Counted from the stretch's first letter, positions 2 through 14,316 are shown. The stretch: 64,000 nt of DNA from a virus (IMGVR_UViG_3300032218_003786:5717-69716), one strand, 5' to 3'. The notes: generated by a model from the sequence alone, not told the origin. Numbers and translations are program-made.

Positions 2-391
2 CACGACCTCGGCTTCGGCGCGAAGCAGCGTGAGCACTCAGGACACGGCGGCGGTTCGCTTGCCGACATCCTGTATGTGCTCTGTGCCTACAAGGTGGCA
101 CGCGGCGGCGGCGACTGGGCGAACGACGACTCGGACTTCGTTGAGTCCACGAACGGAACTTTCAAGGGTCGTTGGCACGGCGACCGCGTAGCAGTCATCG
201 GCGACTACTACGAGGAGAGCGACTTGCCAGCGGGTTGGGCTGAGGCGTTGAGCGACATCGGTGAGCCGACGAAGTTCAAGGACATCTCAGACGAGATTCG
301 CCCCTTCGTGGACAAGTTGTTCAACGAAGATGGCAAGTACGATTACCGCAACCTGAGCCAGCAACTCGCTGACCTCACAGCGGCGAAGTAA
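2..391 (+). CDS. Hypothetical phage protein, 5' truncated at the window edge
   Basis: Frame is open from base 2 (HDLGFGAKQREH...GGGD...GRWHGDRVAVIGDY) to TAA at 391; followed by a hairpin. Confidence 0.75.
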   Translation, partial: HDLGFGAKQREHSGHGGGSLADILYVLCAYKVARGGGDWANDDSDFVESTNGTFKGRWHGDRVAVIGDYYEESDLPAGWAEALSDIGEPTKFKDISDEIRPFVDKLFNEDGKYDYRNLSQQLADLTAAK

Positions 392-442
392 ACTACGAGG
401 GGGGCGGCACTCGCCGCTCCCCTCGCAAGAAAGGAGAACAAG

Positions 443-673
443 ATGTACGGAGAAGAAGCAAACACTTGGTATCAGATTCACACGAACGGAGCAGTCACAA
501 CCTTCGCTCGCTTCTACGAGGGACAGAGTGAGGCGGGTTCGCCAATCTTCGTCTTTGAGAAGATGCAAGCGGACAGCGTGAACAAGTTGATTGAGGTCTT
601 CGGCGAAGAGGAGTACGACGAACTCACAGCGGCAATCAACCGCGTGAAGATTGCACAAACTCTCGCCGAGTAG
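443..673 (+). CDS. Hypothetical protein, 76 aa
   Basis: AAGGAG RBS before ATG; terminator follows. Confidence 0.8.
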   Translation: MYGEEANTWYQIHTNGAVTTFARFYEGQSEAGSPIFVFEKMQADSVNKLIEVFGEEEYDELTAAINRVKIAQTLAE

Positions 674-690
674 TTATTAGTCGCACTCGT

Positions 691-729
691 AAGGGGGGTC
701 GGGGCTTATGCCTCGGCTCCCCTTTTTTA
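691..729 (+). terminator. Intrinsic terminator
   Basis: GC stem-loop followed by a T run. Confidence 0.8.
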
Positions 730-731
730 TT

Positions 732-808
732 GGTTATGGCTTATGTGTTATTGGTTATGACTTACGCGTTATGGGTTATGACTTATGCGTTATGCATAAC
801 GCCTTATG
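732..808. repeat. Heptamer tract A (NNTTATG units, 11 heptamers in register)
   Basis: ggttatg gcttatg tgttatt ggttatg acttacg cgttatg ggttatg acttatg cgttatg cataacg ccttatg. Confidence 0.95.
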
Positions 809-883
809 CGCTGCGCGCGACCCAACCCAAACCAACCAGAATCAACCTTGTGCCACGCAGTTGGCACGGCTGGCTGGCACGAT

Positions 884-920
884 TCTTATCGGTGGAACGA
901 GCGTGGGCGTGTGGCATTAT
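884..920 (+). promoter_or_regulatory. Conserved promoter-like motif, copy 1
   Basis: tCTTATCGGTGG...TGTGGCATTAT; 28 nt from motif start to TGGCAT in all 10 copies. Confidence 0.8.
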
Positions 921-961
921 CTAGGAGTCAGGGAGATTCCCTGCGTAGCAAGGAGGTTCAG

Positions 962-1414
962 ATGGAGCACGAACAAGTGGTCAAAGTGATGCGCTCGGCG
1001 AAGGGTCGCTTCGTCAAGATCATCACGGAAACCGCACCAGTCAGCCCTGCTGAGATGGCGCGGCGCATCGCTAAGGCTGCGGCAAGCGTCGCACCTGACG
1101 CGAAGGCGGCGATCCCGATGGTCAAGACGCTGAGCACTCGCACCGATGAGCGCGGGTGGACAATCAGCGTTGTTCAGATTGTCGGTCAGATGGACAAGCA
1201 CTACGGCGAGGATGGCTTCCACATCGGCAAGGATGGCGGGTTGTCGTTCAGCATCGTCGGTGGTGCGCCAGAGGAATACGGCTTCGCTACGGCGTGTCCG
1301 TACTCTGGCAAAGAGGGTGCGTCGTGCGAGATGCGCGGCAAGCGGCACGCGCATCGCTCGGTGAACGCAGGGCGCGTTCAGGAGATCATCATTGCGGGCG
1401 AGTCGTTCGCCTGA
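962..1414 (+). CDS. Hypothetical protein with CPYxGxEGxxCE...HxH motif; paralogue of 7071-7523
   Basis: AGGAGG at 951-956 places the start at 962 rather than the ORF-track 806. Confidence 0.85.
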   Translation: MEHEQVVKVMRSAKGRFVKIITETAPVSPAEMARRIAKAAASVAPDAKAAIPMVKTLSTRTDERGWTISVVQIVGQMDKHYGEDGFHIGKDGGLSFSIVGGAPEEYGFATACPYSGKEGASCEMRGKRHAHRSVNAGRVQEIIIAGESFA

Positions 1415-1443
1415 CGCAGCGGGGAGGCGGCGCAAGCCGCCTC

Positions 1444-1480
1444 CCTTAGCGGTGGAAGCGTTCGGTCGGTGTGGCATTAT
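1444..1480 (+). promoter_or_regulatory. Conserved promoter-like motif, copy 2 (no heptamer tract)
   Basis: CCTTAGCGGTGGAAGCG...TGTGGCATTAT, overlapping the end of a GCAA-loop hairpin at 1422-1445. Confidence 0.8.
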
Positions 1481-1525
1481 GTAGTAGTCAGGGAGATTCC
1501 CTGACGAGTAGCGAAGGAGGTTCGT

Positions 1526-1807
1526 ATGGGATACGCAACGGCACTCGGTATCGCGGATACGGAGTTGGACTTGGACACGAAACTTCATTGGCACTTCACG
1601 ACGAACTGCTACCCGCCAGTCCCGCTGATGATGATTGCCCCTGCGAAGGCGGCAATCGCACTTGCGGAGATCGGCGAGTCAGACGAGATGGTGGAGATGC
1701 CAGAGGGAGCGGAGCATCGCAAGTATGGATCGCAAGTCCCTGCTTGGGTGGTGATTCAGTCCCTCTACTTGGCGGCGTTCGTCGGCGGCGAGCCTGACGA
1801 AGACTAG
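1526..1807 (+). CDS. Hypothetical phage protein, 93 aa
   Basis: AAGGAGG RBS; NCYPPVP motif. Confidence 0.85.
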   Translation: MGYATALGIADTELDLDTKLHWHFTTNCYPPVPLMMIAPAKAAIALAEIGESDEMVEMPEGAEHRKYGSQVPAWVVIQSLYLAAFVGGEPDED

Positions 1808-1853
1808 TGCGGAGGGGAGAGGCGCAAGCCTCTCCCCGATGCGGAAGGAGGAG

Positions 1854-2069
1854 ATGATGGACTTCTGGCACTCACAGAACCGAAAGAACTGCGGCTGCGG
1901 TAAGCCAGCAGACTTCGTTGCGGATAACAACGAAGCAGGGGTCGCGTATGCGTACTGCGAATCGTGCGAGGAGAAGCGCGCTGAGAAGTTTGGTTGCGCG
2001 ATGATCCTTGCCGAAGGCGCGCAATGCGAAGATGGCATCTGCGGCTGCGGCGGAACGGGAGTCTACTAG
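1854..2069 (+). CDS. Cys-rich small protein, probable zinc binder
   Basis: AAGGAGG RBS; CGCG, CESC and CEDGICGCGG motifs. Confidence 0.75.
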   Translation: MMDFWHSQNRKNCGCGKPADFVADNNEAGVAYAYCESCEEKRAEKFGCAMILAEGAQCEDGICGCGGTGVY

Positions 2070-2117
2070 TTATCGGTTATGGGTTATGCGTTATGGGTAT
2101 ACGCATAACCCATAACC
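2068..2117. repeat. Heptamer tract B forming a 17-bp perfect inverted repeat
   Basis: ggttatgggttatgcgt (2075-2091) pairs with acgcataacccataacc (2101-2117). Confidence 0.95.
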
Positions 2118-2177
2118 CTATCCCCTACCCCATTGACCAATAGCAAACTAAGCGCAAGCGGCTCGGCTGGGGGTTCG

Positions 2178-2214
2178 CCTTAGCGGTGGGATCGGTCTTA
2201 GGTTGTGGCATTGT
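2178..2214 (+). promoter_or_regulatory. Conserved promoter-like motif, copy 3
   Basis: CCTTAGCGGTGGGATCGGT...TGTGGCATTGT. Confidence 0.8.
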
Positions 2215-2255
2215 GTAGAAGTAGCGGAGATGTTCCGCATAGCAAGGAGGTGCGT

Positions 2256-2402
2256 ATGTGCCGAATCTGTGGTTCTGACGATGTCGTGGTGAGCGGCGAG
2301 GATGTCGCTCTGGTGTGCGAGGCGTGTAAGGAGGAGGCTTGGACTGCGGCAGATGCCGCGCAAGCAGATTCGTGGCGAGTAGCCGAGGAGGTGGGTCTAT
2401 GA
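2256..2402 (+). CDS. Small CxxC...CxxC protein, 48 aa
   Basis: AAGGAGG at 2244-2250; MCRICG...CEAC; ATGA overlap with the next gene. Confidence 0.75.
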   Translation: MCRICGSDDVVVSGEDVALVCEACKEEAWTAADAAQADSWRVAEEVGL

Positions 2403-2806
2403 GCGGCAAGGGATTCTGGGCAAAGGTGAACGCAGCGATGAAGGAGATTGATTCATCTTCCATCGCGTTCGTTCTCGGTCATACGAAGGCGAGTCGGTGG
2501 TGCTGTACCACCTGCTCGGCAGCGCAGGGGCAGGAACTCTGGGAAGAGTACAAGGCGGATCAGAAGGCGATTGCTGACGAGTCGGGCAACGACTACGACG
2601 AGTCGTTCTACGACGATCCGATGTTCATCTTCTACCACGACCAAGATCACATTAGGGGTGCGACCGATGTCTATATCGGTTGGTCGGGTAAGGATATGCC
2701 AAGCATCGCGCAGCACTTCTTCCGCAAGCACGGACTAGAAGTAGTGTTGCCGCCAGACGAGCACACGAAGATTCTGGTGAAGGAGCCGACTCTTGTTGCT
2801 GTGTGA
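2399..2806 (+). CDS. Hypothetical protein, possibly DUF6891-like
   Basis: CCTTC and FYHDQD motifs resemble my recollection of that family; coupled start. Confidence 0.7.
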   Translation: MSGKGFWAKVNAAMKEIDSSSIAFVLGHTKASRWCCTTCSAAQGQELWEEYKADQKAIADESGNDYDESFYDDPMFIFYHDQDHIRGATDVYIGWSGKDMPSIAQHFFRKHGLEVVLPPDEHTKILVKEPTLVAV

Positions 2807-2969
2807 ACACGACGAGGTGAAGTGGCTTCACTCCAAGAAGGAGCAGGGCTGCGGCGAGTGTGGCAGGGACAATGACCCCTGCTCGCTCGTCGTATGTTCT
2901 GGGTGTGGCGCAGAGATGCTCGGTGAACTAACGGACGCGCAGCAGAGGTTCTTGGAACAGACTGCGTAA
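2796..2969 (+). CDS. Cys-rich small protein, 57 aa, TTG start (not in the ORF track)
   Basis: AAGGAG at 2780-2785; LLCEHDEVKWLHSKKEQGCGECGRDNDPCSLVVCSGCG... Confidence 0.65.
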   Translation: MLCEHDEVKWLHSKKEQGCGECGRDNDPCSLVVCSGCGAEMLGELTDAQQRFLEQTA

Positions 2970-2970
2970 T

Positions 2971-3008
2971 AAGGGGGCGGCAGGGCTTCGGCTCTGTCGC
3001 CCTTTTTT
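2971..3008 (+). terminator. Intrinsic terminator
   Basis: Stem with a CTTCGG loop followed by T6. Confidence 0.85.
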
Positions 3009-3011
3009 ATT

Positions 3012-3074
3012 ACTTATCGGTTATGGCTTATGTGTTATGGATTATGGGTTATGTGTTATCCCATACCCGTTATA
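3012..3074. repeat. Heptamer tract C
   Basis: acttatc ggttatg gcttatg tgttatg gattatg ggttatg tgttatc ccatacc cgttata. Confidence 0.95.
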
Positions 3075-3146
3075 CGGATACCCACCACCAACACAACACA
3101 CCCAACTCCATCCCGCCTCTCCCAACTCCGCCCCAACCGAACGAAT

Positions 3147-3183
3147 CCTTAGCGGTGGGATCGGTTCGGCAGTATGGCATTGT
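3147..3183 (+). promoter_or_regulatory. Conserved promoter-like motif, copy 4
   Basis: CCTTAGCGGTGGGATCGGT...TATGGCATTGT. Confidence 0.8.
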
Positions 3184-3229
3184 ATAGGTAGAGGAGGTGC
3201 TCTGCTCACTTCCCAAGTGAGGAGGTCTT

Positions 3230-3559
3230 ATGACCGACACACAGAAACTCACGGACATCCTAGCGGAGGCACGCCGCAGCGCGGAGCGCGCATCGTCATC
3301 GGCGCAGGACGCAGCGTCAGAGGCTTCTGATGCTCAGGACTACGCTAGTTCAGCAACGGATTCAGCGAACTCCGCTGAGTCGCACGCTGACGAAGTTCAG
3401 GAGGCTCTGGACTCAGTAGAGGAGATGGTCGCTGAGTTGGTTGCTGAGAACGAGCGACTGACCGCAATCATCGCCAAGATCCGCACCGCGTTGGAGGACA
3501 ACGCAGACCAGAGCGATGTTCTGGAACTCGCAGAGTCGGCGACAGAAGTCGTCGCCTAA
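3230..3559 (+). CDS. Ala/Ser/Glu-rich coiled-coil protein
   Basis: GAGGAGG RBS; heptad-like helical composition. Confidence 0.85.
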   Translation: MTDTQKLTDILAEARRSAERASSSAQDAASEASDAQDYASSATDSANSAESHADEVQEALDSVEEMVAELVAENERLTAIIAKIRTALEDNADQSDVLELAESATEVVA

Positions 3560-3622
3560 GCAATCGGCGAAGCGGCGGCGGGGCTTCGGCTCCGTCGCCG
3601 CCGAGCCACAAGAGGAGGCACT

Positions 3623-3796
3623 ATGAATCGTAGAGGTGTTGAGAAGATCGTCATCCCAGAGCACTCAGTCCGTTGGACTAAGCGACCTGCCGCTGATGGT
3701 GATTGTTGTGAGAAGCATCGTCGCGAGAAGCGCGGTGATGATCGCAAGCGGCTCATCTCTGAGGCTCGCGCCGCGAAGCGGTACGAGGTTGAGTGA
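3623..3796 (+). CDS. Small basic protein, 57 aa (not in the ORF track)
   Basis: GAGGAGG RBS; MNRRGVEKIVIPEHSVRWTKRPAADGDCCEKHRREK... Confidence 0.7.
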   Translation: MNRRGVEKIVIPEHSVRWTKRPAADGDCCEKHRREKRGDDRKRLISEARAAKRYEVE

Positions 3797-3851
3797 GTTG
3801 CTCGGTATCCTTGTTGCGCTCTATCTCGTGTGGTTGATCGGCAACAAGTAA
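3789..3851 (+). CDS. Possible 20-aa hydrophobic peptide
   Basis: TTG start overlapping the upstream stop; SELLGILVALYLVWLIGNK. Confidence 0.4.
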   Translation: MSELLGILVALYLVWLIGNK

Positions 3852-3854
3852 ATC

Positions 3855-3887
3855 AGGCGGGGTGGCTTCGGCTGCCTCGCCTTTTTT
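3855..3887 (+). terminator. Intrinsic terminator
   Basis: Stem with a CTTCGG loop followed by T6. Confidence 0.85.
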
Positions 3888-3928
3888 GTTATTGGTTATG
3901 GGTTATGGGTTATGTGTATACGGGTATG
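3887..3928. repeat. Heptamer tract D
   Basis: tgttatt ggttatg ggttatg ggttatg tgtatac gggtatg. Confidence 0.95.
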
Positions 3929-3992
3929 CGAACCCCGTTCCCCCATACCCAACCAACCAGAGAAGAAGCCGCACGCAGCGTTGAGGCTGAAT

Positions 3993-4029
3993 CCTTAGCG
4001 GTGGGATCGGTGTCTGGGTGTGGCATATT
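3993..4029 (+). promoter_or_regulatory. Conserved promoter-like motif, copy 5
   Basis: CCTTAGCGGTGGGATCGGT...TGTGGCATATT. Confidence 0.8.
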
Positions 4030-4070
4030 AGAGGTAGAGGGGAAGTCCCCCTCAGAAGTTTGGAGGTCTG

Positions 4071-4616
4071 ATGGATAGCGATAAAGTGGTCTGCGCCGCG
4101 CCGAACTGCGGCGAAGAGATTGAGGAAAACTACGCTGAGTATTCCAACATCTTAGAGGATCAGATTTGCTCGGCGTGTTGGCAGTCCGATACTGAGCACG
4201 CGTCGGCGATCACACTCTTTACGCCAATCGGCGAGGTGAGCAGAATCATCCTCGGCGATCTCGTGGCTCTTGATCCTGAGTACGGCGAGCCTGTTGACGC
4301 TTCCTCTTGGAAGCGTGAATACCGCCGCAGCGATGCTTGGCGCGGTCATTACGATACGGTTTTCGTAAAGGGCTGGACTGAGGTTGAAGAGGATCTACTG
4401 CTCTGGGGTCAGCGTACTGATGGGCAGACACTCGGCGAGCGTATCGCTGCTGAGTGTGAGGCTGGCACGCTCCCGTGTGAGGTGTCGGTCATCGCTGATC
4501 CGACCTCTAACCTCTTCGCGCAGGGCGTTAGTTTCTGGGTACGCGATGAGGATGCGATGACCTTCGCCGTGTGGGTGAAGGGCGATGCGGCATACGCGGG
4601 AGCGACCTCGCGCTAA
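4071..4616 (+). CDS. Hypothetical protein with N-terminal Cys cluster, 181 aa
   Basis: GGAGG RBS; CAAPNC...CSAC. Confidence 0.85.
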   Translation: MDSDKVVCAAPNCGEEIEENYAEYSNILEDQICSACWQSDTEHASAITLFTPIGEVSRIILGDLVALDPEYGEPVDASSWKREYRRSDAWRGHYDTVFVKGWTEVEEDLLLWGQRTDGQTLGERIAAECEAGTLPCEVSVIADPTSNLFAQGVSFWVRDEDAMTFAVWVKGDAAYAGATSR

Positions 4617-4622
4617 ACATAA

Positions 4623-4659
4623 AGGGGGGTGGGGGCTTCGGCTCCTGCTCCCCTTTTTT
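4623..4659 (+). terminator. Intrinsic terminator
   Basis: Stem with a CTTCGG loop followed by T6. Confidence 0.85.
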
Positions 4660-4714
4660 GTTATTGGTTATCTGTTATGTGTTATGGGTTATGTGTTATG
4701 CGTATACCCATACC
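4659..4714. repeat. Heptamer tract E
   Basis: tgttatt ggttatc tgttatg tgttatg ggttatg tgttatg cgtatac ccatacc. Confidence 0.95.
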
Positions 4715-4784
4715 CGCGCGACCATTACCAATAACCCACAACCAAACTCGCGCCGCTCCCACTCTTGCTCTGTCTGCGGCGAAT

Positions 4785-4821
4785 CCTTAGCGGTGGGATC
4801 GGTTGGAGTGTGTGGCATATT
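4785..4821 (+). promoter_or_regulatory. Conserved promoter-like motif, copy 6
   Basis: CCTTAGCGGTGGGATCGGT...TGTGGCATATT. Confidence 0.8.
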
Positions 4822-4867
4822 GTATTCATCGGGAGCGGCGATACCGCTCGCACATTGAGGAGGTCGT

Positions 4868-5104
4868 ATGCAGTACGGCAAGAATCACCCGTTGGAGCCT
4901 CACCAGATTGAGGCGGCGATTCTCGGAATCGCTAAGGCGATTGTGTACAACGATCCAGAAGGATCGTGCGACACCATCGCATCGTGCGATTCGCAGGGTT
5001 GCGTGGAGAAGCGGCTGCTCGCGGTTGAGCAGATTCGCCTCTACCTCGTAGATTCTCTAATCGCTATCGCGGCGGAAGAAGTTCGCCAACGCAACAACGC
5101 GTAG
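4868..5104 (+). CDS. Hypothetical protein, 78 aa
   Basis: GAGGAGG RBS. Confidence 0.8.
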   Translation: MQYGKNHPLEPHQIEAAILGIAKAIVYNDPEGSCDTIASCDSQGCVEKRLLAVEQIRLYLVDSLIAIAAEEVRQRNNA

Positions 5105-5165
5105 GCGGCGCATCCGCTACAACGGCGGCGGGGCTTTGGCTCCGCCGCCAACACTAGGAGGTTGT

Positions 5166-5324
5166 ATGGAGATTACGGCAACGAGGCTCTGGCACAACGG
5201 CGCGTGGCAAATCGCGGCAGTAGTAGACGGCGCGTATCAAGCGATTACCTACTACGGCTACAACAAGCGGGAAGCGATGCAACGCTTCCGTAGCGAGATC
5301 AAGCGAAGGCGATTCGCGAAGTAA
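5166..5324 (+). CDS. Hypothetical protein, 52 aa
   Basis: AGGAGG RBS places the start at 5166. Confidence 0.75.
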   Translation: MEITATRLWHNGAWQIAAVVDGAYQAITYYGYNKREAMQRFRSEIKRRRFAK

Positions 5325-5328
5325 GAAG

Positions 5329-5364
5329 AAGGGCGGCGGGGCTTCGGCTCCGTCGCCCTTATTT
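5329..5364 (+). terminator. Intrinsic terminator
   Basis: gggcggcggggCTTCGGctccgtcgccc followed by ttattt. Confidence 0.75.
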
Positions 5365-5398
5365 GTTATTGGTTATGTGTTATGCGTTATGCGTATAT
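5357..5398. repeat. Heptamer tract F
   Basis: ccttatt tgttatt ggttatg tgttatg cgttatg cgtatat. Confidence 0.95.
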
Positions 5399-5473
5399 GG
5401 ATACGCGGTACCCATACCCCCATACCCAACTACCAACAAATCGTAGGCGGCAGATTCGCTTCGGTGGTTGCTT

Positions 5474-5510
5474 CCTTAGCGGTGGGATCGCTTCGGCGGT
5501 ATGGCATAGT
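5474..5510 (+). promoter_or_regulatory. Conserved promoter-like motif, copy 7
   Basis: CCTTAGCGGTGGGATCGCT...TATGGCATAGT. Confidence 0.8.
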
Positions 5511-5551
5511 CTATTCATCGGGGGAAGTTCCCCCGAAACAAAGGAGGGCAA

Positions 5552-5938
5552 ATGGCAGGTCTAATGTTCGTAATCCGCGCGCTAGAAGACGGCACGCATC
5601 GCATCACGAAGACGGAACACGGCGAAGGGTTGCAGGATGTCTACAACGCAATCGGTTGCAATCTCGTTGAGGTTGCATCACGGGGCAAGATTGGCGGCGT
5701 GCCTGTCGTGCTCTTGTGCGATGAGGAAGGGCTCCTCGTGCAGAATCCGCGCCGCAATATGACGGCGGCGGATGTTCGCGCGGTTGCAGAATCGGCGGCT
5801 CCTTACTACACAATCGCGGGAGATTGTGCGCTCGTTCACGATGACGAGTTGCGCGGCTTCACGGATGCGGAAATCGCCAAGATTGAGCAGGTGCTCAACG
5901 ATGGCGGATTCCCGCTCTACGAAGGGCGCACGCTCTAA
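5552..5938 (+). CDS. DUF3846-like protein
   Basis: LQDVYNAIGCNLVEV...LLCDEEGLL...N...IAGD pattern. Confidence 0.75.
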   Translation: MAGLMFVIRALEDGTHRITKTEHGEGLQDVYNAIGCNLVEVASRGKIGGVPVVLLCDEEGLLVQNPRRNMTAADVRAVAESAAPYYTIAGDCALVHDDELRGFTDAEIAKIEQVLNDGGFPLYEGRTL

Positions 5939-5942
5939 CAAC

Positions 5943-5983
5943 AAGGGGGAGAGTCGCGGGGCGACTCTCCCCCTTCTTTGTTT
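5943..5983 (+). terminator. Intrinsic terminator
   Basis: aagggggagagtcgc / gcgactctccccctt stem followed by a T-rich tail. Confidence 0.8.
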
Positions 5984-6042
5984 ATGGCTTATGCGTTATG
6001 CCTTATGCGTTATGTGTTATGGATTACCCATTACCCATTACC
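5980..6042. repeat. Heptamer tract G
   Basis: gtttatg gcttatg cgttatg ccttatg cgttatg tgttatg gattacc cattacc cattacc. Confidence 0.95.
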
Positions 6043-6108
6043 CGCTATCTGCGGAATACCAGAACCAGAACCGCGCGGCGATTCGTCGCGCCCCTGACGC
6101 GTGCCGAT

Positions 6109-6145
6109 CCTTATCGGTGGGATCGGTCGGGGCGTGTGGCATAGT
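6109..6145 (+). promoter_or_regulatory. Conserved promoter-like motif, copy 8
   Basis: ccgatCCTTATCGGTGGGATCGG...TGTGGCATAGT. Confidence 0.8.
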
Positions 6146-6200
6146 CTACTCATCAGGACGGCGAGCGGTCGCTCTCCCCTGATGCAGCAAGGGGGTACAG

Positions 6201-6524
6201 GTGAAGAACCTCACCACTCTCACGGCGCTCATCGCTGAGCGCCTCGCGACTCTCGCCGATGATGATCGTGCGAGCCTCGCCGCAGCGATGACGCTCACCC
6301 CGATGGATGCGGTGGCGTATCTGAACCTGAACGCCGAGTCCTTCGCGATGGGGCGTATCAGTCTGGCAGATTCACAGCGCGTCTATTGGGCAATCACCCC
6401 GATGGGGTGGCGTGCCGATGAGGGCGCTCCGAGTCTAGCCGAGAAGGTCGCAATCACGACCTTTGTGGGCGCGATGCTAGACCGCAAGATTGCGGAGCAT
6501 CACCGCAACCGCTTCGGGCGGTAG
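6201..6524 (+). CDS. Hypothetical protein, 107 aa
   Basis: GTG start with AAGGGGG RBS. Confidence 0.8.
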   Translation: MKNLTTLTALIAERLATLADDDRASLAAAMTLTPMDAVAYLNLNAESFAMGRISLADSQRVYWAITPMGWRADEGAPSLAEKVAITTFVGAMLDRKIAEHHRNRFGR

Positions 6525-6581
6525 TCGTAGCGCGGCGGCGCGTCGCCCCTTCGGGGGCGGCGCGTCGTCGCAAGAAAGGGG

Positions 6582-6794
6582 ATGACGATGGAAACGCTTT
6601 TCAGAATCGTGCGAGTGTTCAGTTCAGGGCGGTATCCAAGCGAAACAATCGCGGACGGGCTCACCATCGCGCAGGTGCGCGCGTGGACTAACGACCCAGA
6701 AACGAGCAGCAGAACCGCAACGGGCGCGGAAGCGGTGGAACGCACGCGTCTATGCGGCGAGTGGATGGACACCTACGAGCCACAGGACAGGTAG
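6582..6794 (+). CDS. Hypothetical phage protein, 70 aa
   Basis: AAAGGGG RBS; GLT...DPETSS.TAT...G.W motif. Confidence 0.8.
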   Translation: MTMETLFRIVRVFSSGRYPSETIADGLTIAQVRAWTNDPETSSRTATGAEAVERTRLCGEWMDTYEPQDR

Positions 6795-6818
6795 CGCGCT
6801 CAGGGCGCGCAACGCAAG

Positions 6819-6853
6819 AGGGGGCGAGTCGCGGCGGCGGCTCGCCCCTTTTT
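6819..6853 (+). terminator. Intrinsic terminator
   Basis: GC stem followed by T5. Confidence 0.8.
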
Positions 6854-6854
6854 G

Positions 6855-6903
6855 TTTTATGGGCTACGCGTTATGTGTTATGGGTTATGGGTTATGGGTA
6901 TCC
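6855..6903. repeat. Heptamer tract H
   Basis: ttttatg ggctacg cgttatg tgttatg ggttatg ggttatg ggtatcc. Confidence 0.95.
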
Positions 6904-6988
6904 GTATCCGCGTGTACCCACACCCCTAGACCCCCAGACAGCGCGCAGGGGCGGGCGTGGCGGTCGCGGTGGTCGTGGGCGTGCCGAT

Positions 6989-7025
6989 CCTTATCGGTGG
7001 GATCGGTCGGGCGTTGTGGCATTGT
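6989..7025 (+). promoter_or_regulatory. Conserved promoter-like motif, copy 9
   Basis: ccgatCCTTATCGGTGGGATCGG...TGTGGCATTGT. Confidence 0.8.
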
Positions 7026-7070
7026 ATAGGAGTCGGGGAGATGCCCCGCAGTATGGAAGGAGAGCGCACT

Positions 7071-7523
7071 ATGGCAACGGCAGAGCAGATTCACGCCGCA
7101 ATCGCAGCGGCAAAGGGTCGCGTGTTCACCCTCGTGGCGAGCACGCTCCCAACGAGCGAGAAGACGCTCGCGAAGCGAGCCGCTATTGCGTGCCATCGCG
7201 CCGTGGATGGCGTGAAGTTTGACGCGCAGCAGACTCTCGCAACGCACGAGGTAGACGGCGGCACGATCTCGGTCGTGCGCGTCAGCGGTCGCCCCGATCC
7301 CGCGTGGGGCGGCGGCGATCCGATCCGCCTCTCCAAGAAGGGTACGCAGTCGCTTGGTTTCGTCGTCAGCGCGATGAACGAGTACGGCAACGCAACGGCT
7401 TGCCCTTACGCAGGGCGCGAGGGTAGCGCGTGCGAGGATCGCAAGGAGCGACACTCACACCGCGCCTACGGGCTAGACCGCATCACCTCGGTGGTGGTCG
7501 CGGGCGAGGAGTTTGTAAAGTAG
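7071..7523 (+). CDS. Hypothetical protein; paralogue of 962-1414
   Basis: AAGGAG RBS; TACPYAGREGSACEDRKERHSHR. Confidence 0.85.
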   Translation: MATAEQIHAAIAAAKGRVFTLVASTLPTSEKTLAKRAAIACHRAVDGVKFDAQQTLATHEVDGGTISVVRVSGRPDPAWGGGDPIRLSKKGTQSLGFVVSAMNEYGNATACPYAGREGSACEDRKERHSHRAYGLDRITSVVVAGEEFVK

Positions 7524-7581
7524 TCGGGAAGGGGGGCGGCGTTGCCGCCCCCCGATCCCGCGCAGAGAGAGGAGCACAATC

Positions 7582-7740
7582 GTGAAGCGTAAGAATCTCG
7601 TCAGTCTTCGCACATACGCGAGCATCGCAGCGGAGCAGCAGCGGCGCAGGGATCGCGAGGCGGTCGCGTTGTTCATCTTCGTGGCGGTAGTCGTCGCGTA
7701 CTTTGGCGCGCACATCGTATACGCGCTGGTTCGCTCATAG
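7582..7740 (+). CDS. Small membrane protein, 52 aa (not in the ORF track)
   Basis: GAGGAG RBS, GTG start; basic N-terminus then AVALFIFVAVVVAYFGAHIVYALV. Confidence 0.75.
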   Translation: MKRKNLVSLRTYASIAAEQQRRRDREAVALFIFVAVVVAYFGAHIVYALVRS

Positions 7741-7836
7741 AGGGCGCGGCGTTCATCATCATCGTGGTGGTGGTGCTTGTCTGGTTGATCTCATAGCGCA
7801 GGGGGCGGCGATCCTTCGGGGTCGTCGCCCCTTCGT

Positions 7837-7885
7837 GTTTATGGGCTATGCGTTATGGGTTATGGGTTATGCCTTACGCATAACC
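7837..7885. repeat. Heptamer tract I
   Basis: gtttatg ggctatg cgttatg ggttatg ggttatg ccttacg cataacc, after the hairpin at 7800-7833. Confidence 0.95.
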
Positions 7886-7928
7886 TACGCGAGCGGTACC
7901 CACACCCCTATCCCGATTCTTCCGCGAT

Positions 7929-7960
7929 TCTGGCGCGCTCTGGCGCGCTCTGGCGTGCTC
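7929..7960. repeat. 10-bp tandem repeat TCTGGCG(C/T)GC x3
   Basis: Read directly from the sequence. Confidence 0.85.
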
Positions 7961-7961
7961 C

Positions 7962-7998
7962 CCTTATCGGTGGGATCGGGCGCGCTCTCTGGCATTAT
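7962..7998 (+). promoter_or_regulatory. Conserved promoter-like motif, copy 10
   Basis: CCTTATCGGTGGGATCGG...TCTGGCATTAT. Confidence 0.75.
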
Positions 7999-8120
7999 CA
8001 CTACATCAGGAAGCGGCGTAGATCGCGCCGCCCTGCTAGGCGGGCAGCGCAGTGCTAGACCGATGACGCGAGCAGGGCTCGCTAGGGATCACCCGCCGCA
8101 ATAGTTTGGAGGTGCTCACG

Positions 8121-8351
8121 ATGAAGAAGACACCGCAGCGAATCTGGGCGAAGCAGCCCCGAGTAGACCTCTCGTTCGTACCGATGAAGAATCCCGAGCC
8201 GTACCGAACCTGCGCCGTGGGAAGCGTCAGCGAGCCGCGCTGCGATTACGACGCAACCTACACGCTGGCGGGTCGCCCGTGGCTCCCCGTCTGCTCCTCG
8301 CACGCCGTAGCGATTACGACGCGCTGGGAGTCCGAGCGAGGTCAGCGATGA
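8121..8351 (+). CDS. Hypothetical protein with Cys/His cluster
   Basis: GGAGG RBS; C...C...CSSH. Confidence 0.75.
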   Translation: MKKTPQRIWAKQPRVDLSFVPMKNPEPYRTCAVGSVSEPRCDYDATYTLAGRPWLPVCSSHAVAITTRWESERGQR

Positions 8352-8431
8352 GCGTCATCGCAGCCTTCTTCGGAGTCTGGCTCTGGGGGGTCGCGGTCGC
8401 GTGGCTCCTTGCGCGGATTATTAGCCGCTAG
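8348..8431 (+). CDS. 27-aa hydrophobic peptide
   Basis: ATGA overlap with the upstream gene; MSVIAAFFGVWLWGVAVAWLLARIISR. Confidence 0.6.
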   Translation: MSVIAAFFGVWLWGVAVAWLLARIISR

Positions 8432-8545
8432 GTTATGTGCGGGGGGCGTAAGGCTCCCCGCCAACCCCTCGCACGCGCCCTTCGGGGCGCGGCGCAGGTT
8501 ATAGGGCGCAGGAATATTTTTTATCCAATCCGTAGGGGTTGTGTG

Positions 8546-9163
8546 TCAACCCCTTCTTCCCGTTGCCTTCATCCACCCCACGTAATCCTCTGGGCTATCA
8601 AAATCTTCCGTCTCATCCCCTGTTTCAATCACCCACGCTGCTGTTTTTAGTCGATCGAGCAGCATCCAACCACCACGCTGTGGAATTCCATGCTGATATG
8701 CCGTGTTCACCATGGCTTTTTCAACAAATCCGTACATCTCTCTGCTAAACCCTATGGCAAAAATCTCACGGTGAGTCTTTCCGGTGAATGCTGGGTTATC
8801 AAACCGCAACAAAAACGTCAGTGGCTTTACTGATGCGGCAATATTTTTTATTGCAGTGTCGGTAAAGTAGACGTCTCCGTACAACAGGGTGGTTCGGGAG
8901 TCGCTCCACTCTCCTTTTGAGGAGAGGATTTTCTGACGTTCCGATTTTCTGTGCTCGTGTGGGACGACGATCTCTCCATCAACCCCTACAACATAGTTTG
9001 CGTGGGGTGAGACAACGACAACGCGGTCAAATAGTTGTCGCGCTTGCCGGATGGTGCGGTCAATCAGGCGTTCGCCATCAATTTCTACAAAATGCTTTGC
9101 TACCCCACCGTAATCTGCCCACCGAGTCGCTGCTCCGCCGGCCAGAATAAACGCCGTGTGCAT
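8546..9163 (-). CDS. Nucleotidyltransferase (MobA/NTP_transf-like)
   Basis: ILAGGAATRW..GGVAKHFVEIDGERLIDR and LLYGDVYF; start coupled to the thioredoxin stop. Confidence 0.85.
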   Translation of the reverse strand: MHTAFILAGGAATRWADYGGVAKHFVEIDGERLIDRTIRQARQLFDRVVVVSPHANYVVGVDGEIVVPHEHRKSERQKILSSKGEWSDSRTTLLYGDVYFTDTAIKNIAASVKPLTFLLRFDNPAFTGKTHREIFAIGFSREMYGFVEKAMVNTAYQHGIPQRGGWMLLDRLKTAAWVIETGDETEDFDSPEDYVGWMKATGRRG

Positions 9164-9465
9164 TAGTCGGCAAGTTTTCGGGCGATTTCCTCGGCGCGAG
9201 CGAATCCCATGATCTGGCGAGGGGCTCCGTCCACCGGAATGTAGATCATCATCGGAATGGTACGGACTTCCCACTGCTTGATGAGGTCTCGATCGACGTC
9301 CACGTTGATCTTGATGACCTCGACATGGGGGTTGAGGGCTGCAAAGCGGTCCACTTCCGGCATGGTGCGCTTGCACGGCTCGCACCAGGGCGCCCAGAAC
9401 TCCAAAAGAAGGGCCTTAGAGCCACGGAGAGCGTCGATACGTGCTTGAGGGCTGTCTTGGTGCAT
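9163..9465 (-). CDS. Thioredoxin
   Basis: EFWAPWCEPCK active site; VRTIP cis-Pro motif; AAGGAG RBS. Confidence 0.93.
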   Translation of the reverse strand: MHQDSPQARIDALRGSKALLLEFWAPWCEPCKRTMPEVDRFAALNPHVEVIKINVDVDRDLIKQWEVRTIPMMIYIPVDGAPRQIMGFARAEEIARKLAD

Positions 9466-9560
9466 TGGTGGCTCCTTCGGACTGCTGGAGGGGGCAAAAA
9501 GGGCCCCGGCTTGCGCCAAGGGCCCGTTTTGTGGACGTCTCCCTCCGAAATATGGATTGG

Positions 9561-9941
9561 TTAGAACGGGATGTCCAGATCCCCTACGGTATCAGTAGCA
9601 GTCGAGCCCTGATCAGCCTGCGAACTGCCATCTTTCTTCTGCTTTTCGACCTGCAAGAAGCGGCAAGAGATCGAAATCTCGCTGCGTGCGGTTCCCTGCT
9701 TGTCGGTCCATGAAGAGACGCTTGGAATGCCCTCAACATAGACCAAATCGCCCTTACGAACGATCTTTTCAGCGATCTCTGCCTTTGCATCCCAGCAAGA
9801 GACGCTATACCACGTCGTCTTCTGCTCTCCCGCCTCTTTCTGGTTGTCTGCAACGCTGAAGTTGGCAACGGTCTTGCCCGTCTTCGTGTTACGGAGTACT
9901 GGGTCGCTCCCGACGCGACCGAGAAGTGTCACCTTGATCAT
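9561..9941 (-). CDS. ssb: Single-stranded DNA-binding protein
   Basis: KVTLLGRVGSDP..., KGDLVYVEG, acidic DLDIPF C-terminus. Confidence 0.95.
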   Translation of the reverse strand: MIKVTLLGRVGSDPVLRNTKTGKTVANFSVADNQKEAGEQKTTWYSVSCWDAKAEIAEKIVRKGDLVYVEGIPSVSSWTDKQGTARSEISISCRFLQVEKQKKDGSSQADQGSTATDTVGDLDIPF

Positions 9942-10309
9942 CCTAGATCTCCTTCCTGCCAGATCGACAGGTCTACATATTCGGTGTCCTGCTGTGTCTG
10001 GAGAGACCAGACTCGCGGCAAAAACCACCGATCATTTATCCCCAAACCTGACGCAACTGCGTCAAGCGTGAGTTTGAGGATGTTATCGGCGTCCATTGGC
10101 CTCTTCAGGCTGATGGAGATGTCGACAATCGTCCTCTCTTCTTTGGCGGACCAGGCACTCTCTGTTGCCTGAGCCCGCACTAACGATTCTATCAGAGTCT
10201 TCCACTCTTTGGCGATCCGAGTCTTGTAGACAATGCTCCCATGAGCGCGGTATGCCGCATTCCATGACGGCGGTCTACCGAGCAGCCGTATCCTCAACGG
10301 CTCGCGCAC
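9938..10309 (-). CDS. rusA: RusA-family Holliday junction resolvase (start uncertain)
   Basis: PPSWN and PMDADNILKLTLDAVASGLGINDR motifs. Confidence 0.85.
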   Translation of the reverse strand: MREPLRIRLLGRPPSWNAAYRAHGSIVYKTRIAKEWKTLIESLVRAQATESAWSAKEERTIVDISISLKRPMDADNILKLTLDAVASGLGINDRWFLPRVWSLQTQQDTEYVDLSIWQEGDLG

Positions 10310-10961
10310 GAGGGCGATAGTCGGGGGCGTCCATACGGACGACTCTGCATGTTTGTTGGAGCCGAGAGATTGCTGGACCATAGCCAAGATCATCCAATTC
10401 ATCAAGCGTGCGATTACTGGTAGCAATCGTAGGCTTACAGGCACTATACCTGCTCTCGATCAGCACGTACAGTTTTTCAGACGCCCAATCAGTTGCTCGT
10501 TCCTTCCCCAAGTCATCGAGGACGACCACGGATGCCTTGTCTAGGCAGTATTCGAATAATTGCGATGCCTCTCCCTCAGAGTATTTCATCTGAGAACGCA
10601 ACCGCTCAAGGAAGAGTGGCACGTTAAGGAAGCGCATCTTCTGGAGTGGTGCGTTACTGGGGTCGTAGTAGATATTCTTATCCACCTCAAGCGTACGCTC
10701 GTGTAGCCAGTGTTCTGCCTTGCCACGCAGTGCTGCGACTGCTAGGTGTGTCTTTCCCGTGCCAGGCATACCGAGGAGCATGAAGCCCTGATCGGTTAGC
10801 GGTCGGGTTATCCACTCTTGTGCAGCATCAAAGCCCTTCTCAGTGCCTGCACGGACTATCCAGTTAGAAAGGGATGAGGCAGCGTGACGCTGCGGAATCC
10901 CTACTTTTTTTAAAAAATTTTCACTTAGTTCCGCCTGCGGCGGATTCGTCTCGGCAATCAT
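10275..10961 (-). CDS. DnaC/IstB-like ATPase, helicase loader
   Basis: Walker A GMPGTGKT, Walker B VVVLDDLG, LIESRY...TIATSN. Confidence 0.92.
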   Translation of the reverse strand: MIAETNPPQAELSENFLKKVGIPQRHAASSLSNWIVRAGTEKGFDAAQEWITRPLTDQGFMLLGMPGTGKTHLAVAALRGKAEHWLHERTLEVDKNIYYDPSNAPLQKMRFLNVPLFLERLRSQMKYSEGEASQLFEYCLDKASVVVLDDLGKERATDWASEKLYVLIESRYSACKPTIATSNRTLDELDDLGYGPAISRLQQTCRVVRMDAPDYRPRARAVEDTAAR

Positions 10962-11018
10962 GCCTCGCCTCCATTCTCAAATGTCCGTCCGCGACGGACA
11001 TTTGTGTGCATGTGTTTG

Positions 11019-11741
11019 TTATTCGACGAAAGTGTCCCGGCTTTCGGATCGAGTGGTGGTTGGCACCGCATTGCCACGACCACGATTCTGACCAAGTTTG
11101 GTGATGTACGCAATGTAGTCACCCTTCACATCACGTAGTGCAGCCTCGCATACCGCAGACATGAGCGCTGGAATGCCCCCCGGGAATGCCTTGATGAGTC
11201 GTGCCACGCGACCATAATCTGTCTTGTCTGGAATGATGCCGAACTGCGCCGCGATAAATTCGGTCATGCGCCCCTGCGTGTTTGGGCCCTGTACCACGTA
11301 CTCGAGCCACTCTTTCATTGTCCTGACTGGTACAGGAGAATCCTCGATATGGTTGAGTTCCAGCCGATCGTATCGACCCCGCGCAGCCGCTGCCTTCTTC
11401 ATGCGCTCATCGCGCGCGGCATCCTGTGGGGTCTCCTGCCACTCGTCCCAATCGTGAACAACGAGGCCATCAAGCAGTCCAACCCGTCGGAATACGGCAA
11501 GCCACTTAGCGTTCTGCGTTCCAATGACCGCTTCAATGTGTTGATCGGATTCAAACACGCCATGGGTCTCAGATGCCGCGCAAAGCAAGACGACCCACGC
11601 CCATCGCGCGTTGTTATCAGGCAGTCGCCACAACTTCTTATGCTTTGGAAGATCGCTGTAGCAGCGCCACCAGACACGCGCAACGGTTTCCTTCGCGATC
11701 AGATCCTCGGGGAAGAATGGAACATTTTCGTACTCATTCAT
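11019..11741 (-). CDS. Phage replication initiator / replisome organiser
   Basis: HDWDEWQ motif; lies directly upstream of the DnaC-like gene. Confidence 0.7.
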   Translation of the reverse strand: MNEYENVPFFPEDLIAKETVARVWWRCYSDLPKHKKLWRLPDNNARWAWVVLLCAASETHGVFESDQHIEAVIGTQNAKWLAVFRRVGLLDGLVVHDWDEWQETPQDAARDERMKKAAAARGRYDRLELNHIEDSPVPVRTMKEWLEYVVQGPNTQGRMTEFIAAQFGIIPDKTDYGRVARLIKAFPGGIPALMSAVCEAALRDVKGDYIAYITKLGQNRGRGNAVPTTTRSESRDTFVE

Positions 11742-11895
11742 TAGCGGTCACTCCTCCGTTCAGGCAAACTTCACAGCCGCAGACAGCATAGTTGCGGCAC
11801 TTCTCGCATCTCCATACTCCCATAACCATCATGGTTTCGCTAGACTCGTCGCCGCAATCTGAGCAGGGTGCGTACCCTTCTTCTTCAGGATTCAC
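11734..11895 (-). CDS. Cys-rich zinc-finger protein, 53 aa (not in the ORF track)
   Basis: GAGGAGG RBS, GTG start; CSDC...CEKC...CGCEVC. Confidence 0.7.
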   Translation of the reverse strand: MNPEEEGYAPCSDCGDESSETMMVMGVWRCEKCRNYAVCGCEVCLNGGVTANE

Positions 11896-12205
11896 TTGGA
11901 AAGCCTCCTCCTACCTTTGACATAAAAGCAATGAGCGCCAGTGGATTGCGAAGATTAAAGAGCGCAATGGCTGGCGTCAACCCCTCGGCAACAATTCGAA
12001 AGAATCCGTCTCTATCCGTCACGCACGCAACATACTTACCTTCGTGGTGCTCAACTGAAAGTTGCATATACACCGGAAGGTACATTTTCAAGATTGACAC
12101 AACACATGAAACGCAATCGCGCTCAAGTATTGGCTGGGTCGAGCCAGCAGCGTGTGAACATTCTGGTGGCTTAATGTCGTAGAACTCAGTCAACAACACT
12201 GCCAT
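11885..12205 (-). CDS. Hypothetical protein
   Basis: ORF packed within the operon. Confidence 0.7.
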   Translation of the reverse strand: MAVLLTEFYDIKPPECSHAAGSTQPILERDCVSCVVSILKMYLPVYMQLSVEHHEGKYVACVTDRDGFFRIVAEGLTPAIALFNLRNPLALIAFMSKVGGGFPSES

Positions 12206-12209
12206 AATG

Positions 12210-13121
12210 CTATCTCAGCCTTGGTAGGTCTTGCAAAGTTTTCTGTGCGTTTTCTGCAAGAGTCGGTACAAGCATCTTCAATTCGCGTCGGCTATCTGGA
12301 AGTTTCTGTGGATGACTCTCCCACTTATCGCACATCGCTCGGAACTCGCACTTCTCATGAATGAAGGCTGTTGGGTTTGGGTAGACCGCGCCCTTCTCTC
12401 GGGCATCAAGGAATGAGCGGACCTGGATGTACAGGCGGTCAATCTGATCCTGGTTGCGCCGAGTAATGCGTCGATCAACGTTTGGACCTTTGGCAGACTT
12501 GCTGATGATGTTAAACGTGATCTCGGGGTCATGCCCAAAGTTTTCACGGATTGCCATAGCGTATGCCGTCGCCTGGATGTCTCCATGCTCCCTGCCAAGT
12601 TCCCATTTCCTATCAGCAGTCTTGTGCTCAACAACATCCCTGTTGGTTGTCATCATGTCGAGCGTCGCCTTCAACTGAATCGGCAACGTGCCCAATTTGC
12701 TATGGCGAATGTCCGACATCAGCGTTGCCTCAATGCCATTTTCGGTGTGCGGCAACCAGTTGTCTCCAGCGGAGATTGCGGCACTGAGCATCTCATACCC
12801 AACCGCGCTATCAATCAGCGGGTCGTGCTTGTCCTCTTTAATCCAGTCAACTTTTTCTGCCTCTTGCTGATATGTCTCGCCGTAAGCGCGGAAGGCAAAC
12901 TCAGGCTTCTGCTTTTTGGTCGCGTAGTACATTGCGAGACCCGCGTGTACGGCCGTACCAAGAGCAAAAAATGGAGTCGTTCGCTCCGTCCAGAGGCCCA
13001 TCTTGTACTTGTACCACCAACGAAGCGGACACGAAAGGTATTCACGCAACTCGCTTACGCTGATGTATGTGGGATTCCTCTCCACATACCCGTGTCCGCC
13101 AATGTCTGGGAAGTCGCTCAT
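12210..13121 (-). CDS. PD-(D/E)XK (RecB-family) exonuclease
   Basis: SVSELREYLSCP, LDMM..VVEHKT, Q..AYA, C-terminal CEFRAMC. Confidence 0.9.
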   Translation of the reverse strand: MSDFPDIGGHGYVERNPTYISVSELREYLSCPLRWWYKYKMGLWTERTTPFFALGTAVHAGLAMYYATKKQKPEFAFRAYGETYQQEAEKVDWIKEDKHDPLIDSAVGYEMLSAAISAGDNWLPHTENGIEATLMSDIRHSKLGTLPIQLKATLDMMTTNRDVVEHKTADRKWELGREHGDIQATAYAMAIRENFGHDPEITFNIISKSAKGPNVDRRITRRNQDQIDRLYIQVRSFLDAREKGAVYPNPTAFIHEKCEFRAMCDKWESHPQKLPDSRRELKMLVPTLAENAQKTLQDLPRLR

Positions 13122-13744: not shown

Positions 13745-14008
13745 TTACTTTACCTCCCCTTCCTCAATATCAATGAACAATTCGGACTCGGGTTTGCCCA
13801 AGTACGTGCTCAATTTCTTCTTCAACGATTCAGTCATTGGGCTCTGCCCATACTGAACCTGATTAAGGTACCCATAAGAGATACCCAGGTGCTGCGCAAC
13901 CCATCGTCGCTTCACTCCAGATGCTTGGATGATGTCCCAAACTTTCTGGGTAGACTTCCGCTGCAGGCTTCGCTGCCCTGCGTTGTGTGGTCCGCTTTGC
14001 TTACTCAT
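13745..14008 (-). CDS. XRE-family HTH regulator
   Basis: KRRWVAQHLGISYGYLNQVQYG; GGGAGG RBS. Confidence 0.85.
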   Translation of the reverse strand: MSKQSGPHNAGQRSLQRKSTQKVWDIIQASGVKRRWVAQHLGISYGYLNQVQYGQSPMTESLKKKLSTYLGKPESELFIDIEEGEVK

Positions 14009-14315: not shown

Positions 14316-14316
14316 T

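Follow-up and report, generated by a model that had tools for sequence, protein, structure and literature searches.

We analysed a 64,000-nucleotide stretch of viral DNA (the window), which corresponds to positions 5717-69716 of a linear 69,716-bp virus record in IMG/VR (IMGVR_UViG_3300032218_003786) with a completeness estimate of about 80%. The source is an uncultured freshwater tailed phage, probably a siphovirus. Its early region is a tandem chain of at least 14 autonomous promoter-to-terminator cassettes. Each cassette consists, in order, of an extended -10 promoter core (GTSTGGCATWGT), a 5'-leader hairpin, a Shine-Dalgarno sequence, 1-4 small genes, an intrinsic terminator and a heptad array, that is, 4-10 tandem GTTATGN heptads which usually sit directly after the terminator. 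The cassettes are joined by linkers of about 100 nt, and the last 16-18 bases of a linker form a box over the -35 position. In the whole record, the array comprises 14 promoter motifs and 13 (GTTATGN)n tracts, every one on the + strand, and at least 9 GC terminators stand with the 14 promoters between the small genes. Promoters and heptad arrays are confined to record positions 370-14,150, with none elsewhere in the 69.7 kb. The part upstream of the window (record 370-5716) holds 4 further promoters, with motifs at record positions 473, 2456, 3465 and 5101, and 4 further heptad tracts.

Within the window, about 20 small co-oriented early genes lie between 443 and 8431 on the + strand: 443-673, 962-1414, 1526-1807, 1857-2069, 2256-2402, 2399-2806, 2793-2969, 3230-3559, 3623-3796, 4071-4616, 4868-5104, 5166-5324, 5552-5938 (DUF3846), 6201-6524, 6582-6794, 7071-7523, 7582-7740, 8121-8351 and 8348-8431. 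Two of them, 962-1414 and 7071-7523, are paralogous, with 41% identity. The families represented in the cassettes are DUF932, a RadC-like JAB protein, DUF1281_C, DUF4241, a tandem helix-turn-helix (HTH) protein and DUF3846, and many genes have no family. Judging from these assignments (DUF932, RadC, DUF1281_C, DUF4241, DUF3846), a role of the early genes in host interaction is plausible. About 70 proteins of the record were scanned against Pfam and PHROGs, and the negative results on proteins given below rest on these scans, in which many small open reading frames (ORFs) had no match. Terminators with a GC hairpin and a T-run are found upstream of 7-8 of the 9 window tracts. All on the + strand, they close unit 4 (691-724, with a 15-bp stem and a T-run), unit 7 (2971-3006, with an identical hairpin after the orthologous unit in the B-type relative introduced below), unit 8 (3855-3882), unit 9 (4621-4656), unit 10 (5329-5360), unit 11 (5943-5975), unit 12 (6819-6850, of family D2) and unit 13 (7800-7833). 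Four of the record's tracts follow directly after a stop codon, and 3 of these are upstream of the window.

Ten copies of CTTAKCGGTGGRAYCG, allowing at most 2 mismatches, are present on the + strand of the window, compared with 0.16 in shuffled sequence, and TGGCAT follows at fixed spacing in each of them. Numbered 5 to 14 in the array, these promoters are located on the + strand at 885-920, 1445-1480, 2179-2214, 3148-3183, 3994-4029, 4786-4821, 5475-5510, 6110-6145, 6990-7025 and 7963-7998, the last being the end of the array. For example, promoter 5 has its type box at 885-900, a variable 10 nt and the extended -10 sequence TGGCATTAT at 912-920. Promoter 6 combines the box with TGGCATTAT directly after the terminator hairpin 1422-1441, and promoter 7 combines it with TGGCATTGT; promoters 8 to 14 were located as motif matches. 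Three of the copies upstream of the window carry TGTATGTT, TGTAAGTAT or TGCCATAGT, with the spacing unchanged. When the sites are aligned on TGGCAT they read TG, one base, then C-A-T-W-R-T, which corresponds to TG at -15/-14 plus A-11 and T-7, and these positions are invariant across about 100 sites. The first base of the -10 hexamer is C instead of T; the features of an extended -10 sequence are otherwise found in all sites. No TTGACA-like -35 hexamer is present, the hexamer 17 bp upstream being GTGGGA, and a consensus sigma-70 scan recovers 0 of the 10 window promoters. We infer that the host RNA polymerase would use the -10 core without a -35 contact. A sigma-54 reading of TGGCAT was rejected, as the -12 position, read from the sequence, has no GC.

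An earlier note on this DNA had described motifs, heptamer tracts, terminators, leader hairpins and ribosome-binding sites between 392 and 8431, together with one paralogous pair, and all of these are in place, far above chance in the case of the elements. Its description of self-contained expression cassettes also stands, as each unit has its own promoter, leader, genes and terminator. The limits it gave to the array, 392-8431, were too narrow, for the array begins upstream of the window. It had further proposed a conserved order of the parts; the parts are indeed present, but promoter 6 is the only window promoter without an upstream heptad tract, and the C/A-rich arm of the linker is not universal.

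Relatives of the array were obtained in two ways. A scan of IMG/VR for three in-phase heptads gave 4 contigs of 37-58 kb, and a metagenome scan with the alignment of the paralogues gave 20 further loci from lake-type samples. The relatives share the heptads, the family-wide core GTS-TGGCATWGT, which is common to all of them, and, for orthologous genes, the leader hairpin. The box differs by lineage, with at least 7 types of 16-18 bases over the -35 position. Type A (CCTTAKCGGTGGGATCGG) is that of the source record. Type B (TGCTCCATAGTAGGTTT) is found in G001 (= L238) and L246, type C (GTTCGGTGGATTCA, GGTCGGTGGATTCA or GGTCGGTGGAATCTT) in C3, C2, C4, Cp (L236), Cq (L242) and others, type D (TATTGCCATAG..GGGCG) in L234 and L235, type E (TATCGCCATAGAACGCCA) in L237 and L249, and type F (TGCTCCATAGCGATC) in L244, L245 and L248, while type G is one further form in L250. 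The box extends from about -44 to -26, lies across the -35 position at 17-bp spacing and lacks dyad symmetry. Inside each contig it is uniform (14/14, 13/13, 16/16, 13/13, 12/12, 9/9 and 8/8), whereas the 6-10 bases between the box and TGGCAT vary inside a genome. No box occurs outside the array, and a search of IMG/VR for the exact box returned single, chance-level matches only. What had been taken for a single 37-bp motif is actually a family-wide -10 core plus a box at the -35 position, which differs between types and is not exchanged with the cassette.

Downstream of the core, a GC hairpin of at least 5 bp, starting 15-20 nt after the T of TGGCAT, is found in 61 of the 71 distinct leaders of the phage and its relatives, compared with 13, and at most 23, in shuffled leaders. 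It begins only some bases away from the predicted RNA 5' end, and a strong Shine-Dalgarno site lies downstream of motif and hairpin. The example at 929-943 (+), cagggagattccctg, starts about 2 nt past the predicted transcription start, and every unit has its own version. The 61 leaders use 28 different stems, and among relatives the leader hairpin of orthologous genes is identical. That the stems differ in sequence but the fold persists argues for a functional stem-loop at the RNA's 5' end. By analogy, the hairpin is most likely an mRNA-stabilising element, since 5' stem-loops such as that of ompA protect mRNA. In Rfam 15 no family matched at its gathering score, the best match having 25.8 bits against a gathering score of 50.

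Evidence from RNA libraries consists of assembled contigs only, taken from 4 metatranscriptome runs of 4 studies, with 85-99% likeness to the cassettes. Uncovered parts, and joints with a likeness below 95 or with short sides, were left out, and the lake or river labels of the libraries rest on small word shares, one probable source run excepted. The 5' ends of contigs lie at 4836, 4837, 4841 and 4843, one per run, which is 8-15 nt past the start predicted for promoter 10. In one run, another contig spans 1489-1808, from the predicted start of promoter 6 through the stop codon. Some contigs continue into unlike sequence upstream of promoters, which fits other box types or DNA carry-over. Taken together, these contigs give a weak hint that the cassettes may be transcribed from the predicted starts.

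The heptads follow the matrix G-T-T-A-T-G-N, in which TTAT is almost invariant, and all 65 heptads of the record are on the + strand. In the window the arrays are located, all on the + strand, at 727-810 (about 10 units, with the palindromic turn gttatgcataac at the end), 2069-2133 (heptads at 2069-2098 and inverted CATAACC units at 2104-2133, after a stop codon with no GC terminator), 3014-3060, 3888-3914, 4659-4700, 5359-5399, 5982-6043 (heptads at 5982-6021, then three ATTACCC), 6857-6899 and 7839-7871. Most arrays end in 1-3 inverted units (CATAAC and decayed forms), which produces a palindromic turn, and the arrays end 99-122 nt upstream of the -10. The heptads are confined to the early array in four relatives too. 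A heptamer scan of 185,579 genomes returned mostly microsatellites of Bacteroidota and Nostocales, with no relatives and no clue to the host.

In C3, the divergent intergenic region left of the first early promoter (L107:540-1070) contains, besides a tRNA-like sequence, about 14 GAGTTATG words that share one orientation and are not in tandem. These non-tandem words suggest that the heptad word may by itself be a recognition site. Direct recognition of the word is also what the strict polarity, the TTAT invariance across about 190 heptads of three genomes and the restriction to early arrays argue for when considered with the C3 cluster, and the heptad arrays are probably protein-binding sites, similar to those of the plasmid protein omega discussed below. 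On the other hand, the elements might be explained as ordinary strong promoters and terminators accompanied by slippage-prone microsatellite heptads, with the box homogenised by gene conversion and with neither a recombination role nor a type regulator. Array length at orthologous sites does vary from 4 to 10 units, (GTTATGN)n and (GAGTTAT)n repeats are present as well in unrelated viral contigs and numerous genomes of Bacteroidota and Nostocales, and the phage carries recombination genes. This explanation is nevertheless improbable in our judgement. In every relative the heptads keep strictly to one strand and to early promoters, their TTAT is near-invariant, and the words before the first promoter of C3 are beyond slippage; moreover, tract-wise conversion would not yield a constant box next to 6-10 variable bases.

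Repeats of the (GAGTTAT)n and (GTTATGN)n kind were observed in unrelated AT-rich viral contigs (L053, L049, L048, L036 and many of L112-L191), Bacteroidota and Nostocales. These arrays resemble heptanucleotide repeats known from cyanobacteria, and no link to the phage family was found.

A different proposal is that the heptads and the C/A-rich arm form a long RNA or single-stranded DNA hairpin, acting as a second terminator, a 3' stabiliser, a Rho entry site or an attC-like substrate. Strong fold-back is found at the record's four junctions without a GC terminator (z = -4.5 to -5.3 at three of them, with -4.5 at 2069-2133, and -2.7 at the fourth); one of them contains a perfect inverted repeat of 17 bp at 2075-2117. 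The C/A-rich, G-poor arms of A- and C-type linkers resemble Rho entry sites. However, z ranges from +0.5 to -2.7 at the remaining arrays, so that most arrays fold no better than shuffles and fold-back is significant at just 4-5 of the 13. The fold-back energy is not clearly different with and without a terminator (p = 0.26), B-type relatives have a weak C/A-rich arm or none, the heptad hairpins are not followed by a U-run, the scanned proteins include no integrase and no Rfam family matched. The hairpin proposal is therefore very unlikely. Of its special forms, the heptad hairpin as a replacement terminator was rejected because the energies show only a weak, non-significant trend, and the C/A-rich arm as a universal Rho entry site was rejected because B-type linkers lack it.

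When cassettes of different box types are compared, the homology boundaries are sharp. A and B agree at 84-94%, with full cover, from a -10 up to the following heptad array, while their linkers are mostly unalignable. Between B and E, the cassettes are 92-98% identical over the region common to both contigs (one at 86%) and the linkers 55-79%. Two B/E junctions were aligned base by base: the sequences are nearly identical from the gene's 3' end across terminator and heptads, then diverge over some 100 nt that take in the box, and agree again, to the base, from TGGCAT onwards. Homology blocks between types thus begin at the -10 and often stop at or just past the heptads, and 5 of the 9 A/B blastn blocks begin within 12 nt of the T of TGGCAT. 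In C3 and Cp, which belong to one box family, the linkers are conserved like the cassettes (73-94%). The early array of A has 80-96% nucleotide identity to B or C, compared with 66-76% for the backbone of replication, capsid and tail modules. As synonymous and non-coding sites are too similar for purifying selection, recent exchange of the early array can be inferred, and the early genes appear to sweep across diverged backbones.

Rearrangements also occur at the level of whole units. The units 3230-3851 and 4071-4616 are in the opposite order in 7 of 7 relatives, a swap of units 27 and 28-29. In this swap, each terminator has moved together with the genes before it and each leader with the genes after it. 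DUF3846 forms a unit by itself in A, C3, Cp, Cq and F; in B and D it shares one with another gene and is placed after a unit that is missing from A. Among relatives, the DUF3846 unit and units 34-18, 50 and 57 move or come and go, and gene families 18, 19 and 20 are present twice per genome. Identity per gene is mosaic, as in the case of the gene at record 7972, where B and Cp match at 94% and C3, D and E at 76-77%. In C3 (L107:15027), the promoter of the DUF3846 unit stands directly after the preceding stop codon, with no terminator or heptads, and the orthologous junction 5325-5551 has both, so that parts of the element are gained or lost at fixed gene junctions. The first unit of C3 (L107:1200-4064) has no informative Pfam match and no homologue in the source record. 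The earlier note had held that fixed gene order and content among relatives would speak against its recombination cassette system. Swap, gain, loss and duplication of whole units were found instead, and exchange at shared ends is borne out. A dedicated machinery is not: there is no integrase or invertase among the scanned proteins and there are no attC-like sites. Integron cassettes with attC sites are likewise a poor description, as the scanned proteins include no tyrosine recombinase and significant fold-back is limited to the few arrays mentioned.

Recombination activity could instead be supplied by the module adjoining the array on the minus strand (9561-13744), which encodes SSB (9561-10028), an IstB/DnaC-like ATPase (10275-10961), a PD-(D/E)XK exonuclease (12210-13121) and a 208-aa protein (13118-13744). 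The latter has no Pfam family, and its PHROGs matches are labelled 'unknown function' only; its position, adjoining the exonuclease and near SSB, suggests a single-strand annealing protein.

The box is conserved within a genome, has variable neighbours and is replaced as a set between types, the pattern expected of a cis site whose trans factor is type-specific. Extended -10 promoters can do without a -35 contact, and for this reason we prefer a repressor operator to an activator site. Hence the box is most likely, from its sequence pattern, the operator of a type-specific phage repressor, serving early shut-off or the exclusion of co-infecting relatives. The opposite assignment makes the box a positive element, in a class II or PhoB-type position that replaces the -35, for a type-specific activator or sigma-like factor that is virion-borne or already in the cell. 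Such a role would suit the location of the box over the -35 position at 17-bp spacing, the lack of dyad symmetry and the presence of the box on all early promoters, the record's first included; giant and highly variable virion proteins of 5112 and 2635 aa, the N-terminal 2500 aa being without a known domain, might carry the factor. We regard it as unlikely. The giant proteins have no RNA-polymerase or sigma motifs, no virion protein could be linked with the box, extended -10 promoters normally need no activator, and one unit of the mixed contig L252, described below, would stay silent. A virion RNA polymerase was rejected separately, as the 5112-aa and 2635-aa proteins have no matching Pfam family or catalytic motif.

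For the operator, there is one lead concerning the partner gene. An ORF at 14001-14390 (minus strand), encoding about 105 aa, acidic and hypervariable, is located between the gene of a conserved XRE-like HTH protein (13745-14104, minus) and that of a Zn-ribbon HTH protein. It is 24-31% identical between types and about 90% identical between two C-type phages (by eye, from translations). Between B and C2, the flanking DNA is 94% identical and the ORF itself is unalignable at the DNA level. It is the sole gene seen to covary with the box type, three types having been sampled.

Our overall model, which we consider reasonably probable, is that of a cassette chain with homologous exchange at shared ends, a type-specific box and heptad binding arrays. 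Cassettes would move between types and be reordered through homologous recombination, with the shared -10 and leader as the left homology arm and the terminator and heptads as the right arm, and the type-specific linkers would stay put. The heptad arrays would bind protein cooperatively, with an insulator, roadblock or silencer function, and would in addition provide universal homology patches.

Several observations weigh against this model. There are 3-4 promoters per genome without heptads, so the arrays are dispensable for promoter function. No protein binding the box or the heptads could be identified. The tandem-HTH early protein (L111:4698-4994) and the Zn-ribbon/sigma-region-4-like HTH protein (14317-14571, minus) were rejected as readers of the box, as their recognition helices are identical across box types; HTH candidate copies of B and C3 are 88% alike although the boxes differ. 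The covarying ORF does not look DNA-binding. The box may also be explained by the -35 preference of a host sigma factor. In the mixed contig L252 (Ga0181356_1000092), a C-type box at L252:482 is followed in the next unit by a B-type box at L252:1424, so a mismatch is tolerated at least at the array end; the arrangement fits an import of the whole unit plus linker. Some mosaic breakpoints are inside units, between genes, and therefore the elements are preferred, not sole, exchange points. Finally, the RNA-library contigs may hold DNA, and some of them cross a promoter.

The model can be extended, rather speculatively, to a two-layer system in which the universal ends let anti-host genes flow between phages, the private box is read by a co-evolving type-specific protein and an omega-like protein insulates the promoters. 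If true, it would mean a type-specific shut-off or exclusion of co-infecting relatives that is comparable to heteroimmunity, in a possibly lytic phage.

Regarding the rest of the record, the replication-type module is on the minus strand and includes, besides SSB, the IstB/DnaC-like ATPase and the exonuclease, a replication-initiator-like protein. The structural genes encode portal, capsid, the 5112-aa tape-measure-containing protein, the 2635-aa fibre-like protein, terminase and tail-collar fibre proteins. In the 5112-aa protein, the N-terminal 2500 aa (window 27688-35187, +) contain no Pfam domain and no polymerase motifs, and one HExxH is located near residue 1569. Neither integrase, invertase nor RNA polymerase was found among the about 70 scanned proteins. 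Near the terminase genes, a small protein (52235-52750, +) has a ParB N-terminal-like domain with E = 2e-5, just under the Pfam cut-off. At the left end of the record, upstream of the window, an AT-rich non-coding stretch (L111:100-330) with dense ACTAGT/TACTAGT words lies immediately upstream of the first heptad array and is possibly a genome end, origin or packaging region.

The significance of the array is fourfold. The natural sequences mark the ends of exchangeable early cassettes, often to the base, which gives an unusually clean view of modular phage evolution. The concerted replacement of a type-specific box beside near-identical cassettes points to an unrecognised control of early promoters or to competition between phages. 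The cassette genes (DUF932, RadC, DUF1281_C, DUF4241, DUF3846 and the many without a family) make good candidates for roles in anti-defence or host takeover. The short promoter, leader and terminator parts are potentially useful for expression once the host is identified.

Four known systems can be compared with the array. Morons are single insertions in late regions of temperate phages. As in morons and the host-takeover module of SPO1, each small gene group here has its own promoter and terminator, but unlike morons the groups are lined up in regular tandem and have their ends in common. A further comparison is with the stoperators of Cluster A mycobacteriophages and the diversification of immunity-type operators; stoperators are binding sites of these temperate phages' immunity repressor and are scattered over the genome. 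The box resembles stoperators as an asymmetric site (13-18 bp) in many copies, in one orientation relative to transcription and with a sequence specific to the phage subtype; it differs in that the sites are at the -35 position of early promoters only, and no integrase or matching repressor was found among the scanned proteins.

The omega protein (ParB of pSM19035) needs at least 4 contiguous heptads, direct or inverted (PMC9499535, PMC2441792). Similarly, the array has contiguous 7-bp repeats with at least 4 per array, both orientations and several arrays per replicon beside promoters. The heptad sequence is different, however, and omega arrays overlap repressed promoters whereas about 100 nt separate the present arrays from the -10 downstream. 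The scanned proteins yielded no ribbon-helix-helix family or ParA partner, many small ORFs being matchless and the record about 80% complete. The likeness to omega, drawn by analogy, is one of layout only.

The closest comparison is with the PeSL (promoter-early stem-loop) cassettes of T4-type phages (Arbiol et al. 2010, PMC2839356; Comeau et al. 2014, PMC4122927), in which a sigma-70 consensus promoter of about 50 nt, with a -35 and an AT-rich upstream part, has a stem-loop within or beside it. Promoter and terminator activity, and mini-circles from exchange between neighbouring motifs, are part of what characterises PeSLs. Judged from the portal protein, which is less than 25% identical to that of any cultured phage record, the present lineage is unrelated to these phages, and none of the cultured phages is close: compared by megablast with 50,697 phage records, the region had no nucleotide match. 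The array differs from PeSLs in having no canonical -35, so that its promoters do not fit the sigma-70 consensus, in having the terminator 150-250 nt upstream of the -10 with a heptad array and a type-specific boxed linker in between, and in having a separate hairpin in the leader. Nevertheless, both are repeated composites of a promoter and a stem-loop or terminator between small, mostly uncharacterised early genes in a plastic region, and both end in a Shine-Dalgarno sequence and a start codon. In either system, indels, replacements and reordering trace back to recombination between copies, and differences between related phages map to the motifs. The array is thus PeSL-like in function and evolution, with two parts that have not been described for PeSLs: the heptad arrays and the type-specific linker and box that are excluded from exchange.

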